A stretch of 64,000 nucleotides of DNA from Nitrospinaceae bacterium (GCA_965223665.1 OZ245011.1:2880001-2944000), one strand, 5' to 3'; positions 4,330 to 15,798 are shown, counted from the stretch's first letter. Notes: generated by a model not told the origin, from the letters alone. Numbers and translations are program-made.

Positions 4330-6126
4330 CTACTTGGCAGTCAGTTCAAAGTTTGCACCTGTATTAGCTCCAGCAGTCACCGTAATTTCCTGGCTCATCT
4401 CTCCAACATAAGGATGCCATGCCGTTAACCAATAAGTACCTGCAGGGATTTGGTCGATCTTAAATGTTCCGTCTGCAGCACTTATAGAATAATAAGGATT
4501 CCATACTACTCTTGCATCAGCTTCCATAAAATTATGTTGATCACATTGTAGGAAGAAATGTTTATCCTTCTTTGGTTTAAACCTTTTAAATGATTTTGTG
4601 ACGTCGGTGATATCCCCCTTAGAAGGCAATGGTTTATTGAACAACGTCTTTCGGTTTGCTCCAACCACGGAGTATCCATGTGGGTTGTGCAAAATATTAA
4701 GATCTTGATTGGTAATGGTAAGTAATCCTTCCTTAACACCCTTCGGAGTTTTTCGTACGATAGAAACTTTAGGAAAGATATCACAGGTTTTAAAATCAAA
4801 GTTTTTAGTATCCTTAGACCAAGCCTTACCTTTCTCAATATTTTGTATGAAAACCACTGCATCCTTCAATTTACCATTGGTGGCAATCACTTTAGTCCTT
4901 AATCGTGTATTACCCTTAGCATCTGGATGAGTAGCACAAAATTCAGAATTTTTTCCCTTACTCAAATCTTCCAATATTGGGGCGGGTGGGTCACCTATTA
5001 ATTGAATCATTCCACTGATGGAACCCCCATTATTCACCGCTTCTTCTGAATATTTTTTATTTGGTTTTACATCTTTCGGGAGCTTACTCACCGCATTAGA
5101 AGGAGTAGAAGGTTTAGCAGGCGCCATAGCAGGCGGCGGTTCGGTAGCTGCAGCCATTTTGTTTTCTGGTTTAGGAGTTGGTTCTGCAGTTGCTTTATCT
5201 TCAGAAGTGGAACTTCCCATATAGGTAGACCTAATATATTTGACCACATCCCAAATGTCTTGATCCTTTAACGTTTTTTTATGGGCCACCATTCCAGTAC
5301 CTGGTGATCCATTTTTTATGATCCAAAACATTTGACCCGGGGAAACACTTTCCATAGTTTCTGCGCAGGTAAAGTTTCTGGGTTGAGGTTTTAATGCCGC
5401 ACCCAATTTTCCTTTTCCATCCCCATTGTCTCCATGACACATTTTACAAGCCATGGGTTTTGCAGACTTATTATAAATCTTCTTTCCGTTTTCTAAATTG
5501 GCGCTCGCGGTTTTATCCATATTTGCAATATTAGACGGAGCTCCTTTGGTTTTTCTCTTTTGAGGACATGGACCAGAAGCTTTCACCACTTTGTCAACCG
5601 TATCTTTCTTTGGTTCTGCAGGAGATTGGACTTCTGCTTTAGGATCAATAGATTCAGTAGGAGCCACTGGCTTGGACTCCACCATAGCTTCAGCTTTTTC
5701 TTCTTTCATTGGAGTTTCAGCTTTTTGCTCGATGGGTTCTGGTGGAGAAACGGGTTGGCTTTCAGTGACAATTTCAGTTTTTTCAGGTGCCTCATCCATA
5801 GCAGGTGGTTCAGATGGAGTTGCTTCTACAGATAACTCTTCCTTCTTTACTGAAAACAATAAATCTTTGGTATCTTTATCCAATTTTCCACTGGCAGAAA
5901 TTCCGTTTTCTTCCTGAAATTGTTTTAATGCTCTTTCTGTTTTAGGTCCCCATAGCCCATCTACCGGCCCTGGGTTCAGGCCTTTTTCAATCAAGGATTC
6001 TTGAGCCTTTTTGACCAGGGTATCTGCCAAGGCAGAAACCACCCCAATTTGAAGGATTAAAAAACTAATGACAGTTATAATAAAAATTCTATGACCCAGA
6101 GTAGTTTGAAATCTAGAATTATTCAC
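4330..6126 (-). CDS. Periplasmic fusion: peptidoglycan-binding domain + c-type cytochrome + cupredoxin-like/carboxypeptidase-regulatory-like domain
   Basis: Signal peptide; PGPVDGLWGPKTERALKQFQ (PG_binding_1); CKMCH haem motif with distal GTGM; HNPH...CDQHNFM; Pro/Glu-rich linkers. Confidence 0.75.
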   Translation of the reverse strand: MNNSRFQTTLGHRIFIITVISFLILQIGVVSALADTLVKKAQESLIEKGLNPGPVDGLWGPKTERALKQFQEENGISASGKLDKDTKDLLFSVKKEELSVEATPSEPPAMDEAPEKTEIVTESQPVSPPEPIEQKAETPMKEEKAEAMVESKPVAPTESIDPKAEVQSPAEPKKDTVDKVVKASGPCPQKRKTKGAPSNIANMDKTASANLENGKKIYNKSAKPMACKMCHGDNGDGKGKLGAALKPQPRNFTCAETMESVSPGQMFWIIKNGSPGTGMVAHKKTLKDQDIWDVVKYIRSTYMGSSTSEDKATAEPTPKPENKMAAATEPPPAMAPAKPSTPSNAVSKLPKDVKPNKKYSEEAVNNGGSISGMIQLIGDPPAPILEDLSKGKNSEFCATHPDAKGNTRLRTKVIATNGKLKDAVVFIQNIEKGKAWSKDTKNFDFKTCDIFPKVSIVRKTPKGVKEGLLTITNQDLNILHNPHGYSVVGANRKTLFNKPLPSKGDITDVTKSFKRFKPKKDKHFFLQCDQHNFMEADARVVWNPYYSISAADGTFKIDQIPAGTYWLTAWHPYVGEMSQEITVTAGANTGANFELTAK

Positions 6127-10820: not shown

Positions 10821-12197
10821 ATGAAGCTAGGAAGCTCTGGAATTGTTATTTCAGGCGCGGGTACTTCTGTGGGTAAATCATCGATTTCTATTGGGCTCAT
10901 GAGGTTGTTGAAGCGGCAGGGTCATAGTGTGAAACCTTTTAAAGTGGGACCTGATTATATTGACCCAGGCCATCATTACAGGGCAGCAGGAAATCCAAGT
11001 TACAATTTAGACTCATGGATGTCTTCCCCAGGATATATCAAACAAATTTATGATGAAGTCGTTATGGAAGGAGATACTGCCATTGTTGAGGGAGTGATGG
11101 GTTTATTTGACGGAGCCTATTCTACCAAACCTGATGGAACAACGGCAGAAGTGGCAAAAACTTTAGGTCTTCCTGTATTGCTGGTTGTAGAAGGTAAATA
11201 CATGGCACGATCTTTTGCAGCTCTAGTCCAAGGATTTACACAGTTCGATTCAAAGATTGATTTTATCGGAGTGATTGCGAATCGAGTGAACAGTAAAGGC
11301 CATAAGAAAATACTGCAAGAATCGATTGAGCATTACACAAATATGCCTTTTTTAGGAGCCATTCCTTCCAATAAAGAATTAGAAATGCCCAGTCGCCATT
11401 TAGGACTAAAACTAAGCGTTGAGCAAGAAGAAAATTTGTATGAAAGATGGGCAGATCATTTAGAAAAAAATTTAGATATTAGTGCACTTATTACAACAAA
11501 CCTTAATAAAACTCAAAGTTCTATTCCACATAATATTTCAGGTGTCAATCGATGGAATGTACAACCCAGATCAAAAAAGTTTAAAGTTGCAATTGCGAAA
11601 GATGAAGCTTTTCAGTTTATATATCAAGATACTTTAGATTTAATTCAAGCTTTGGGAGGAGAGATTCAGTTTTTTTCACCCCTGAAAGACACAACTTTAC
11701 CTACAAATTCAAACTTAATTTATTTTCCTGGAGGATACCCTGAACTCCATGCCAGTGAATTAGATAATAATATTTCACTTCGAAACCAAATATTGAATGC
11801 AGGAAATGAAAGAACTCTTATAATTGGTGAATGCGGTGGACTGATGTATTTAGGAAAATGTTTAAGGGACTTAGAGGGAGAAATTCATTCTATGGTTGGT
11901 TTGTTTGAATTTACAACCACCATGGAACATAAAAAACTAACCATAGGTTATCGTGAATTAGAGTTTTTTCCCGATTCAAAAGAGAAAGAACTAATAGTTT
12001 TAAAGGGACATGAATTTCACTGTTTTGAAATGGAAAATGATATTGAATCCTCCCATATGAAGCATCGCTGTCCAAAAACTCAATCACTAATTCAAGACGG
12101 ATATATATACCTTAACTGTTTTGCTTTTAGGTCTCATATCTATTGGCCTTCATCCCTTGAAGGATTTAATTTTATATTAAACAAGATAGAAAATTAA
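10821..12197 (+). CDS. cbiA: Cobyrinate a,c-diamide synthase
   Basis: GKS P-loop, FKVGPDYIDP, EGVMGLFDG, SRHLGL, GGYPEL, GECGG, GHEFH. Confidence 0.92.
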   Translation: MKLGSSGIVISGAGTSVGKSSISIGLMRLLKRQGHSVKPFKVGPDYIDPGHHYRAAGNPSYNLDSWMSSPGYIKQIYDEVVMEGDTAIVEGVMGLFDGAYSTKPDGTTAEVAKTLGLPVLLVVEGKYMARSFAALVQGFTQFDSKIDFIGVIANRVNSKGHKKILQESIEHYTNMPFLGAIPSNKELEMPSRHLGLKLSVEQEENLYERWADHLEKNLDISALITTNLNKTQSSIPHNISGVNRWNVQPRSKKFKVAIAKDEAFQFIYQDTLDLIQALGGEIQFFSPLKDTTLPTNSNLIYFPGGYPELHASELDNNISLRNQILNAGNERTLIIGECGGLMYLGKCLRDLEGEIHSMVGLFEFTTTMEHKKLTIGYRELEFFPDSKEKELIVLKGHEFHCFEMENDIESSHMKHRCPKTQSLIQDGYIYLNCFAFRSHIYWPSSLEGFNFILNKIEN

Positions 12198-12205
12198 AAA
12201 CAACT

Positions 12206-13051
12206 CTAAGTTTTTAAACTGTTAAACAAATCTTGGTATTTTACATTTCCAGGATTTAGTTGTATGGCCCTTTGAATTGATTCTTTTGCATCTATTGGTT
12301 TGTCAATTACCGTCTGAATCTGGGCAATTTGGTAATAAGCCTCCGGTTGGTATGGATTTATTGCAATGGATTGATTCAAGGCCTCTAAAGCTTTAGGGTA
12401 ATCTTCACGATCTTTATACAAGAGCCCTAAATGAAAATGAGTTAAAGTAGATTTAGAATCTAACTTTAAAGACTGCTGTAAGTACTTTTCGGCTTGATCT
12501 AAATTTCCTACCATCCGATAACTATCGGCAATGTTATTTAAATAAAGAGGATTATTCGATTCTTTTTGGATAGCGGTTTTATAATGTTCAATTGCTTTTT
12601 GGTACTCTTTCCGTGTTTTGTAAATATTACCGATATTGTTATATGCTCTGGAATCATTATCATCTTCCTGGAGCTGAATGGCTTTTTCCCACTGCTCTAA
12701 AGCTTTATCAGAATTTCCTTCCATATAAAAACACATGCCCAGGTTGATTCTAGCTTGTAAATGTTTCGCATCAATTTCGATAACTTTTTCAAACATTGTT
12801 TTAGCATTTTCGATTTGCTTCATTCCAAAATAGATTAAACCTTTTTTATCATAAGCCTCGGCATTTTTGGGATTCAGTTTTATAGCCAAATCAAATTCAT
12901 CCAATGAATTTTTAAATAATTTGTATTGAGCAAACTCAATACCAAGGCGGTAATGTTCGTTGGAGGCTTTGGGATCGATTAGTTGTTTTTCAGAAGAACA
13001 AGCAATCGTAAAAAGTAAAATTGAAATTGTAAAAATAAGTTTTTTATTCAT
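12206..13051 (-). CDS. TPR-repeat lipoprotein
   Basis: MNKK-hydrophobic-IAC lipobox followed by multiple TPR repeats. Confidence 0.8.
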   Translation of the reverse strand: MNKKLIFTISILLFTIACSSEKQLIDPKASNEHYRLGIEFAQYKLFKNSLDEFDLAIKLNPKNAEAYDKKGLIYFGMKQIENAKTMFEKVIEIDAKHLQARINLGMCFYMEGNSDKALEQWEKAIQLQEDDNDSRAYNNIGNIYKTRKEYQKAIEHYKTAIQKESNNPLYLNNIADSYRMVGNLDQAEKYLQQSLKLDSKSTLTHFHLGLLYKDREDYPKALEALNQSIAINPYQPEAYYQIAQIQTVIDKPIDAKESIQRAIQLNPGNVKYQDLFNSLKT

Positions 13052-13062
13052 GGGAAGTATTT

Positions 13063-13094
13063 GGAAAAGAAGGGACCGGCAGATAACCGGTCCC
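13063..13094 (-). terminator. Intrinsic terminator after the secreted-protein pair
   Basis: Minus strand GGGACCGG-N7-CCGGTCCC then TTCTTTTC. Confidence 0.8.
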
Positions 13095-13107
13095 AATATT
13101 AGAAAAT

Positions 13108-13740
13108 TTAGTTCATACCTCGTCCACCCGTTGGTACTCCACCGGAACCTAAGGTCACACCGGAGGACGGAAGAGTGGAGTCATGCATATCACCAATAAA
13201 TTCCATGGAGAATCCTGCGTTACTGGCTTCGGCAAAAACAACCCCCCACATTGCGATTTGGTTGAGGTTTTCATATTTGCCATTTCCATTTTGAACAGTG
13301 GGGGTCGTATTATCCGAAAGAATTCTAACGTTCCCCAACACCGCACCACTAGAGGTCGTAGTAATAAAATGGTCTCTTGCAGTAAAAGCTGCGTTATTGG
13401 TGGTTGGGTTAATTGAAGGATGGTTAGTAGCAACTATGAATAATTTATGGGTCTCACCTGCACCCACGGTAAAATTAATAGATGTACTTCCTACGATTTG
13501 ACCCGCAGTTGTTCCTTCTAATGAAACTGTCAACCCAATATTAGAAGCCGCAGTACTTAAAGAAGGATGAGTAAAAGCTAAAAACGAATAAAAACCACCA
13601 GCAGATGGACCACCTGGTACTACCTGAGCAAAAGGCGATACGGCCACTCGTGATCGGTCCACGGTTTGTGCCGTGGCAAACTGGACCAGCATTACAAACG
13701 CTGCCAGAGTTATAATTGTTATATGAATTAACTTCTTCAT
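13108..13740 (-). CDS. Secreted hypothetical protein (paralog B)
   Basis: Sec signal ending ATA, AAGGAG RBS, motifs shared with 13793-14383. Confidence 0.85.
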   Translation of the reverse strand: MKKLIHITIITLAAFVMLVQFATAQTVDRSRVAVSPFAQVVPGGPSAGGFYSFLAFTHPSLSTAASNIGLTVSLEGTTAGQIVGSTSINFTVGAGETHKLFIVATNHPSINPTTNNAAFTARDHFITTTSSGAVLGNVRILSDNTTPTVQNGNGKYENLNQIAMWGVVFAEASNAGFSMEFIGDMHDSTLPSSGVTLGSGGVPTGGRGMN

Positions 13741-13792
13741 AAGTTGTTCTCCTTAGTTTAACCAGCTATTCGGATAAAGTTTCAAGCCGATT

Positions 13793-14383
13793 CTAGTTTA
13801 CCCCACTGGGGAAAGTATTAGCTGCTTGGCCCGGGTGCGATGAGGAATCATTCATGTCTCCAATGAATTCCATAGCAAAACCCGTATTGGAGCCGGAAAA
13901 TACCACTGCACCCCAATAAGACAACCTCGTAATATCATTGGTACTTCCAGATTGAACAGGGTCAAATCTTATATACCCGGTTCCGCCGGCATTTGTTGAA
14001 CCAAGAATGACGGTATCATTCGGAAAATTGGCCACGTTAAACAAAGAATTCGAAGTCTGCAGGTTGGTGCCAAAAATAAAAATCTTGGAAGTCTGCCCAG
14101 CACTCACTGTAAAAGTCTGGGAGGTTCCATAAATATTTGCAGCGCCTTCGCCTCCATCACCTAAAAATGCTGTGACAGTTACACCAACATCAGAAGCCAT
14201 TCCACTTAAAGATGGATGAGCAATGCCTATAAAGGTGTAGGTAGATCCAGCATGTTGCCAATAGGGAGCGATAACTCTGCTAGACGGGTCGATGGCAAAG
14301 GCATTGTTTGCGCTTACTGCTAACAAGACAAATACAGCCATACCCGAGATCGAAATGGATCGGAAAATCCGTTTAATTTTCAT
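13793..14383 (-). CDS. Secreted hypothetical protein (paralog A)
   Basis: ATG 14383 after AAGGAG RBS; Sec signal ending AFA; motifs shared with 13108-13740. Confidence 0.85.
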   Translation of the reverse strand: MKIKRIFRSISISGMAVFVLLAVSANNAFAIDPSSRVIAPYWQHAGSTYTFIGIAHPSLSGMASDVGVTVTAFLGDGGEGAANIYGTSQTFTVSAGQTSKIFIFGTNLQTSNSLFNVANFPNDTVILGSTNAGGTGYIRFDPVQSGSTNDITRLSYWGAVVFSGSNTGFAMEFIGDMNDSSSHPGQAANTFPSGVN

Positions 14384-14652
14384 TAGAAATTTCTCCTTTA
14401 TATTCCGAATCTTCTTTTCAGAAGAAAATTGACAGACGTTAAAAAAAAGTTTTTCCAGGCAACGACCCCCTTCCAAAAATTAGAAATAAATAAGGTAATG
14501 TATTTTTATTTGAGTAACTTACTTCCAGTGTAAACCAATAAGTTTATATTTTTGAAAACAAATTCAATTATTCTTCCAAACTTTTTCTAAGTTATGAAAA
14601 AACAATCAAAATTAATATTCTTTGTCTAAAATGAGAAAAAATGCTTGATTTT

Positions 14653-14679
14653 CTATCGGTTGGAAATAGTAATACTTTA
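14653..14679 (-). promoter_or_regulatory. Sigma28 (FliA)-like promoter upstream of the paralog pair
   Basis: Minus strand TAAAGTAT-N11-ACCGATAG versus consensus TAAAGTTT-N11-GCCGATAA. Confidence 0.55.
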
Positions 14680-14997: not shown

Positions 14998-15798
14998 ATG
15001 ATGAATAATCCAAGGGTCTTTACCATTAAAGAGAACCGCAGACTGGTTTTATTTTTATTCTGTCTGGTGCCTTTTTGGCTTGCTGCATGTGCTACCCAAA
15101 GTACAAAAAAAAATTCTGGAAATAAACTGGAAGCTCAAAAATACTATGACTTAGCCGAAAAGGCCTATTCTGTCAAACAAAAGGATGAGTTTTATCGAAA
15201 TTTAGATAAAGCTATCGAATTGGACCCTGAGGAACCCTATTTTCACCTTGTTAAAGGAGATGCTTATTTTGAAGATGTCAAACTTGATGCGGCAGAACAA
15301 GAATATTTAACTGCTATTAAATTAGGGATAGAAAATCCCGACGGTAATCGCCAACTGGGCCGATTATATATGCAAAAAAGGGATTGGGACAGTGCCATCT
15401 ATTATTTAAAAAAGGCAACTGAAGCGAGAAACTTAATAGCCCCTCATCAAATTTATAATTGGCTGGCTCTTTGCTATTATGCCAAGGGTGAATTGAGTAA
15501 CGCAGAAAAGACATGGGTTAAATCTTTAGGAATAAAAGAAAATGGTCAGATAAGGATGAATTTAGGCCTTATTTATAAAGAAGCAGCTGAATTCGAAAAA
15601 GCAAAAGAATCCTTAACTAAAGCAATTGAATTAGATTCCAAACTGGTTCGTGCACATTACGAAATTGCCCAATTGTATTTAAAAGATCGTAGATTTGCTG
15701 AAGCAAGGGAACATTTTCAGAAAGTGATTGATTTGGAGCCGTTAGGAAAATCGGCAAAAACATCTAAAGAATATTTAAAACTAATGCCTAGTGAGTAA
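14998..15798 (+). CDS. TPR lipoprotein, PilF/PilW-like type IV pilus biogenesis protein
   Basis: LAAC lipobox, TPR repeats, position directly upstream of a rodZ-like gene. Confidence 0.65.
   Translation: MMNNPRVFTIKENRRLVLFLFCLVPFWLAACATQSTKKNSGNKLEAQKYYDLAEKAYSVKQKDEFYRNLDKAIELDPEEPYFHLVKGDAYFEDVKLDAAEQEYLTAIKLGIENPDGNRQLGRLYMQKRDWDSAIYYLKKATEARNLIAPHQIYNWLALCYYAKGELSNAEKTWVKSLGIKENGQIRMNLGLIYKEAAEFEKAKESLTKAIELDSKLVRAHYEIAQLYLKDRRFAEAREHFQKVIDLEPLGKSAKTSKEYLKLMPSE

Follow-up and report, generated by a model that had tools for sequence, protein, structure and literature searches.

What do two adjacent secreted proteins of no recognizable family do for a cell, and why should a lipoprotein gene follow them from beyond a terminator? 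The questions are raised by a locus in a stretch of 64,000 nucleotides (nt) from the genome of a Nitrospinaceae bacterium (GCA_965223665.1, OZ245011.1:2880001-2944000; "the window" below means this whole stretch), which holds two paralogous genes, here called A and B, and a gene for a tetratricopeptide repeat (TPR) lipoprotein (Table 1). Our answer starts from related Nitrospinota, in which the domain that makes up A and B also ends large secreted proteases and adhesins; because the same domain ends those proteins, the unit likely docks them on the cell surface. More specifically, comparison of genes and genomes suggests that A, B, and the TPR lipoprotein could constitute a surface-display unit in which oligomers of free A and B take up the tails of cargo proteins, with the TPR protein as chaperone, a reading to which we would give nearly even chances.

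Both A and B are preceded by an AAGGAG motif and start with a basic-hydrophobic, signal-like stretch, read here directly from the sequence and not by a signal-peptide predictor. They align at 36% identity across 195 columns (E 4e-27), and their mature parts are free of Cys, consist to 43% of Gly, Ser, Thr, and Asn, and have 14 and 17 charged residues, respectively. A sequence-only reading of this DNA had described them in similar terms, as adjacent secreted paralogs with low-charge mature regions that it could place in no family, and the description holds: Pfam and NCBIfam offer neither A nor B a family at E up to 1, 41 domains of the family have no credible match there at E 0.1, and for neither protein's predicted model does Foldseek find a match at E 0.001 or better. 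The shared motifs that it listed are present, although its "SRV" words are not in register, and the conserved core of the two proteins is [VI][SA]P[YF][WA]Q. It had also suggested that the C-terminal G-x-N of both proteins could be an assembly or sorting signal. That ending is common in the family but not universal, since among 262 full-length members 146 end in G-[VILMT]-N, 60 in a GPxAP-like sequence, and 56 otherwise. A C-terminal module is indeed shared, but it is the whole domain of about 165 amino acids (aa) and not the last 3 residues only.

The reach of this module became apparent with a 41-row domain profile, which yielded 38 longer homologs, 1,367 of similar length, and 198 representatives at 50% clustering. 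In the 150 of these 198 that were listed, 48 are at least 350 aa long with a strong match, and in 47 of them the domain lies within 20 aa of the C-terminus; by a simple measure of hydropathy, most of these long representatives also have a hydrophobic stretch at the N-terminus. Their other parts include M12 reprolysin-like and S8 peptidases, GSDH, SBBP, FG-GAP propellers, Calx-beta, PKD, HYR, and He_PIG, and in one domain scan of 24 such cargo proteins 6 were without any family at E 1e-10. The richest case is a genome (G007) with 46 matches, made up of 43 near-full ones, which are 41 long frames of 484 to 5,370 aa and a free A-B pair with the TPR gene after it, and of 3 fragments. Thirty of the 46 matches were fetched, and of the 29 long-frame loci among them 28 end in the domain, 16 to 19 aa past the conserved motif. 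The other (L062, P0223) has 1,476 aa, with the domain N-terminal, right after a signal-like stretch, and with what look by eye like Calx-beta and YD/RHS repeats.

A-type and B-type domains form 2 deep clades with support of 1.0 in a tree of 127 domains that is unrooted apart from its midpoint and has many weak nodes, and in relatives most cargo proteins end in the A-type. When 74 cargo tails were compared with free copies, the nearest was an A for 63 and a B for 11, and for 8 of 9 cargo tails outside G007 the free A of the same genome was among the top 3. Concerted evolution of cargo tails with the A of their own genome, at which the tree hints, is not claimed because pairwise tail scores bear the hint out only partly. 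The source genome itself contains exactly 2 copies of the domain, A and B, and no cargo protein; the free pair would therefore have a job of its own. All named homologs are from Nitrospinota except for one locus (L005) in a record labelled Alphaproteobacteria, and by source name the family is found in 2 cultured lineages, Ca. Nitronauta litoralis (P0049) and Ca. Nitrohelix vancouverensis (P0265). The ESM Atlas also has Acidobacteriota clusters of 166 to 212 aa at 0.94 to 0.95 by features to B, possibly a distant branch. Internal stop codons occur in 3 domain matches (G038:C104:1536-2039, G056:C1:58909-59400, and G004:C371:2344-2787), possibly from decay or assembly errors.

Does the TPR gene belong with the pair? 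A search of 120 Nitrospinota genomes located the domain in 67 and the TPR orthologue, never in more than one copy, in 59. With 2 remnants (G073, G074) counted as absent, which leaves 65 domain genomes, 56 genomes have both, 52 have neither, 9 have the domain only, and 3 have the TPR gene only, and the shared absences are spread over several separate genera. No P value is given for this co-occurrence because kin genomes are not independent. The TPR gene starts at most 214 nt from a domain match in the 32 genomes with readable adjacency, a non-random sample chosen from the 56 with both. This distribution of genes shows A, B, and the TPR gene to be inherited and lost together, and the linkage first noticed in a single genome is conserved across relatives.

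The same comparison separates the unit from the genes beside it, which from motifs and position we take to be pilT-, pilU-, and pilC-like, headed by a gene that we presumptively call pilW from its position and TPR content; A, B, and the TPR lipoprotein gene are all on the minus strand, divergent from this cluster. In 4 of 5 well-assembled genomes without an intact unit, pilW and pilT are kept. In 3 genomes (G036, G025, and G073) the unit's usual flanking genes adjoin each other, with pilW facing the gene that follows the TPR gene in relatives, and in G023 pilW has a different neighbor. Because pilus genes persist where the flanks of the lost unit adjoin, the link to the pilus is one of position only, and gene content and order show the unit to be independent of it. 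The remnant in the single-contig genome G073 (L070:1325-1640) may be read as a decayed cargo gene: an out-of-frame, propeller-like fragment and, after it, no more than the final 45 aa of an A-type tail.

Among 33 related loci, the order A-B-TPR beside the pilus cluster recurs in 11, and contig ends truncate 2 more; in 2 others A-B comes without a TPR orthologue, 1 is a fragment of B, and 5 have only long fusion proteins. The A-B spacer measures 52 to 56 nt in 12 of 12 loci with the A-B-TPR arrangement. The terminator that the earlier reading placed after the pair is borne out both here, where the hairpin has a folding energy of −19.1 kcal/mol (z −5.79) that none of 200 shuffles equaled in stability, and in relatives, where 12 of 12 loci of this first type (window included), as well as L005 and L006, have a strong hairpin and U-tract after B, as judged by eye from predicted folds. 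Its position between B and the TPR gene is conserved and its sequence has changed. Cys18 of the TPR protein stands in a lipobox-like position and is conserved in at least 90% of 13 orthologs, in agreement with the lipoprotein originally proposed, and no AGGAG-like site can be read in the sequence upstream of its gene. One distant family has a single free gene followed directly by the same TPR orthologue, so the link between domain and TPR protein is probably older than the duplication that gave A and B. In another genome the unit is duplicated, in the order A-B-TPR-A'-B' (G041:C12:701194-705349).

What the domain looks like bears on how it might work. The model of A from the 41-row alignment (predicted local distance difference test [pLDDT] score 82.6, predicted template modeling score 0.80) has about 9 strands and a tail, some 20 residues long, of low confidence. 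Its top match of 48,161 chains is TM1070 of Thermotoga (1NC7; Z 10.0, root-mean-square deviation 2.7, 104 of 116 residues aligned, 9% identity), and the second is ASRT of Anabaena (2II7; Z 7.1), with unrelated sandwiches at 6.6 or below and several carbohydrate-binding modules at Z 5 to 6. Foldseek likewise gives TM1070 its highest probability (0.99, E 0.032). A pilin-like fold finds no such backing, A's best match being the ASRT fold, the ENA pilus subunit reaching Z 4.9, and EcpA and FaeG a Foldseek probability of at most 0.09. We thus predict the domain to be an ASRT (ASRAH) beta-sandwich with a flexible, conserved C-terminal tail, a call that rests on one model because that of B is weak. 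It looks like ASRAH in fold, and we do not file it as a member of that superfamily because of the weak B model, the lack of a profile link, and the state of the signature Asn, which is mostly His: at the position presumed to correspond to it (end of strand 2, equivalence inferred), 99 motif matches have His in 92, Asn in 6, and Val in 1. In deep-branching members, predicted strand 2 ends in Asn. At the position presumed to match W7 of TM1070, at the start of strand 1, Trp is invariant in 30 A-type rows and Ala in 24 B-type rows, though the rows were selected with a motif that contained these residues. A search of PDB sequences with a deep-branching member gave azurin-type matches only, at E 0.25 or worse. 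Predictions of an A+B complex scored 0.39, 0.08, and 0.23 in different runs against a mark of 0.32, with no control folded, and are used neither for nor against any reading.

If A and B are the subunits and the lipoprotein a helper, the former might be expected to be the more abundant, as the sequence-only reading had supposed from the place of the terminator. Some indication comes from Table S10 of PMC13768755, which covers 8 samples and lists in situ transcript levels for Ca. Nitromaricola pontica. There a run of two twitching genes and then genes of 939 and 795 nt is followed on the opposite strand by genes of 609, 645, and 846 nt, and we assigned orthologs by synteny, that is, by order, strand, and length, with the gene sequences unseen and many zeros among the values. 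On this footing, presumed A has a mean of 653 (row 197 of 2,895, or about 194th of about 2,892 genes), presumed B a mean of 1,018 (row 70, about 67th), and the presumed TPR gene a mean of 187 (row 2,254, about 2,251st). The noisy data thus put the synteny-assigned A and B within the top 2% to 7% of transcripts, below nxrB (6,963) and nxrA (3,746) of the same table, which are 4 to 11 times higher. Transcript levels of A and B above that of the TPR gene fit a terminator between them. Codon bias was uninformative as a gauge of expression, with GroEL at the 52nd percentile. For export, type II secretion is a plausible route for A, B, and the cargo proteins, judging from gene content: a type II secretion operon that ends in full-length GspD is present in the source genome (G000:C1:1266650-1278421), and 54 of the 65 genomes with the domain have a full-length GspD. 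In 4 near-complete genomes of one genus (g3), which also lack the unit, no GspD was found.

How, then, could these parts work together? C-terminal peptides are frequent ligands of TPR domains. TM1070 is a tetramer with a cleft to which the dimer interface contributes (De Souza et al. 2009, PMC2739507), and secreted versions of ASRAH occur as dyads or tetrads (PMC2739507). Since our chains have one strong copy each of a fold that elsewhere comes in dyads or tetrads, a partner would have to come from another chain, and free A and B would supply the partner in an oligomer that cargo tails join. A, B, and the cargo proteins would be exported by Sec and then probably by type II secretion; free A and B would assemble, in the manner of ASRT-fold proteins, into mixed dimers or tetramers; and these oligomers would sit on the outer surface, probably by way of a surface glycan. 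A cargo protein would be held there when its A-type, less often B-type, tail replaces a free subunit, and the scarcer TPR lipoprotein would bind the domain, perhaps at its tail, as a chaperone or membrane anchor. A bolder version, which we regard as doubtful, is an ASRT-fold outer coat or fiber of A and B that is assembled with the help of the TPR protein after type II secretion and into which up to about 40 different proteases and giant adhesins would be plugged by subunit swap; it would amount to a new modular architecture for surface display in the ocean's main nitrite oxidizers.

Several results weigh against surface display by A, B, and the TPR protein as just set out. Twelve of the 120 genomes are discordant, mostly in fragmented assemblies, and in G088 the TPR gene and both domain matches are on different contigs. 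A second A-B setting, with no adjacent TPR gene, accounts for 11 of the 33 related loci, and a 12th such locus is cut after A; the 10 loci of this second type that were examined have no comparable hairpin. GspD also occurs in 22 genomes that lack the domain, and none was found in 11 domain carriers. The C-terminal tail is variable, 1 carrier has the domain at its N-terminus, and in G007 the own free A is the best match for 11 of 28 cargo tails, among the top 3 for 13, and below 20th for 10. As to the fold, the B model has a pLDDT of 63, its last strands are unformed, its matches are Ig-like only, at Z 6.0 or below, and TM1070 is in neither of its match lists. The profiles PF07100 and PF18986 match 0 of 41 family members at E 0.1, PF07100 finds nothing in 11 genomes with a Thermotoga control positive, a PDB sequence search with the family profile has 0 matches, and there is no sequence-level link of the family to DUF5719 (PF18986), for which the genome search was run without a positive control and Atlas neighbors, all below 0.9, are leads only. 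The transcript values, too, carry the weakness of their assignment by synteny.

If A and B were instead the major subunits of an open polymer, such as a fiber, a sheath, or an S-layer-like lattice, with cargo proteins built in by their tails as minor or tip subunits and the TPR protein as assembly chaperone, an extension to the cargo proteins of what the sequence-only reading had proposed, then their strong ribosome-binding sites, the conserved terminator, the G/S/T/N-rich all-beta subunits, and a source genome that keeps both without cargo would all be as expected, and Atlas neighbors named Slr4, at 0.81 to 0.84 and so below 0.9, would be a lead. We think this unlikely, since the best fold match is to a family that forms closed tetramers while the ENA subunit reaches only Z 4.9, there is no Slr4 match in Pfam, and transcripts 4 to 11 times under those of nxrA and nxrB are, even in noisy data, low for an S-layer that covers the cell. 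The domain might also be a stand-alone glycan anchor similar to carbohydrate-binding modules or S-layer homology domains, in which case cargo proteins would bind lipopolysaccharide or exopolysaccharide alone and free A and B would be cross-linking lectins. The ASRAH fold has been proposed to bind sugars (PMC2739507), carbohydrate-binding modules are among the next structural matches, and the carrier with an N-terminal domain would pose no difficulty. Quite improbable nonetheless in our estimate, this leaves unexplained the near-strict C-terminal position, the conserved free tail, the bias toward A over B, and co-inheritance with one lipoprotein.

That unrelated secreted proteins, up to 5,370 aa long, have the domain strictly at the C-terminus would be accounted for if it were an export signal, like the C-terminal domain (CTD) of type IX secretion, that is read by the TPR lipoprotein and passed on to a secretion machine, with free A and B as cargo-less substrates or accessory factors. 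The conserved tail, the co-inherited lipoprotein, and the type II secretin in 54 of 65 carriers agree with such a signal. A free pair without cargo, both in the source genome and in many genomes with exactly 2 matches, does not; nor is it easy to see why a pair that is signal only should be highly transcribed, and no gene for a processing protease or transporter is conserved beside the unit in related loci. We rank this just after the glycan anchor in probability. A role of A, B, and the TPR protein as accessory parts of the neighboring type IV pilus is suggested by their divergent position beside the pilW-rodZ-pilT cluster, conserved in many relatives, but a second type of A-B locus and the single-gene form both lie away from pilus genes, neither A nor B has a prepilin (class III) signal that can be read in its sequence or a pilin match in Pfam or NCBIfam, and the persistence of pilW and pilT without the unit leads us to reject a functional link that could then be real only by a very slim chance.

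Surface display through A and B recalls arrangements known from other bacteria. In type IX secretion, a beta-rich CTD stands at the extreme C-terminus of many unrelated proteases and adhesins exported by Sec, much as the present domain does. The A/B domain differs from that CTD (TIGR04183, PF18962) in being about twice as long, in its predicted fold, in having free-standing copies as the conserved core, and in its phylum; in NCBIfam and Pfam these 2 models match 0 of 41 family members, and a search for the SprA translocon was negative in 5 of 5 genomes, with no control positive either. In the WxL/WxLIP clusters of Firmicutes, a helper is encoded together with small free-standing versions of a domain that also forms the C-terminus of large proteins. 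Free copies beside a helper gene and large proteins that end in the same domain are features of our family as well, though here the host is Gram-negative, the helper is a TPR lipoprotein, the predicted fold is another, and there is no match to WxL in Pfam. Secreted members of the ASRAH superfamily (PF07100; 2II7, 1NC7) are, like the proteins here, fused to enzymes (PMC2739507); what sets the present family apart is a domain of about 165 aa that has insertions and a conserved tail, the presence of a single strong copy in each chain rather than dyads or tetrads, the free secreted paralogue pair with a dedicated TPR lipoprotein, and the absence of a profile match at 9% identity. The Slr4 S-layer protein of Pseudoalteromonas tunicata (PF19526; PMC7821379) is similarly secreted, beta-rich, from a marine Gram-negative, and linked to type II secretion, but it is of about 57 kDa and predicted to be beta-helical (PMC7821379), whereas A and B have no Pfam match.

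C-terminal surface tags are already known, while the domain, the free paralogue pair, and the TPR partner appear to be undescribed. Literature searches, subscription papers not covered, brought up, judging by their listings, no paper on the A/B family or on surface-display systems of Nitrospinota, and term searches of PMC10839748 and PMC8026999 yielded nothing about surface layers or pili. Among known nitrite oxidizers, Nitrospinota are the most abundant in the marine water column (PMC10839748). An unnamed domain family now gains a defined genetic unit and a list of cargo proteins, and proteases and adhesins as long as 5,370 aa, if held at the surface, would bear on the attachment of Nitrospinota to particles, biofilms, or hosts and on whether these chemolithoautotrophs use organic nitrogen. 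Should the proposed mechanism be true, it would give the ASRT fold, presumed so far to serve as a sugar sensor, a role in protein docking as well. The idea is open to testing because 2 cultured lineages carry the family.

Table 1. Parts of the unit and its divergent neighbor, with positions counted from the first letter of the window.
Feature	Position	Strand	Description
Gene A	13793-14383	−	196 aa from ATG at 14383; secreted, free-standing domain, predicted beta-sandwich; A-type (PYWQ)
A-B spacer	13741-13792	−	52 nt with AAGGAG
Gene B	13108-13740	−	210 aa; secreted, free-standing paralogue of A; B-type (P[YF]AQ), ending RG-x-N
Intrinsic-terminator-like hairpin	13072-13094	−	9 bp, 7 of them G-C, then a U-rich tail; separates B from the TPR gene
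TPR lipoprotein gene	12206-13051	−	281 aa; TPR_1 E 1.5e-45; Cys18; candidate chaperone or anchor
Divergent TPR gene (outside the unit)	14998-15798	+	Heads the pilT/pilU/pilC cluster; kept where the unit is absent

In 7 loci of the second type (L007, L012, L013, L015, L021, L023, and L028), a gene for an M12 protease cargo stands directly beside A-B, whether upstream, downstream, or convergent. On the far side of the TPR gene in the window, a plus-strand gene at 10821-12197, presumably cobyrinate-diamide-synthase-like, stands between it and a radical-SAM gene, as it also does in L001, and in several relatives a gene of about 155 aa takes its place. Further off, a minus-strand gene at 4330-6126 encodes a secreted-looking protein of 598 aa with Pro/Glu-rich linkers, what we take to be a peptidoglycan-binding-like start, and a CxxCH motif that we likewise presume to bind haem.

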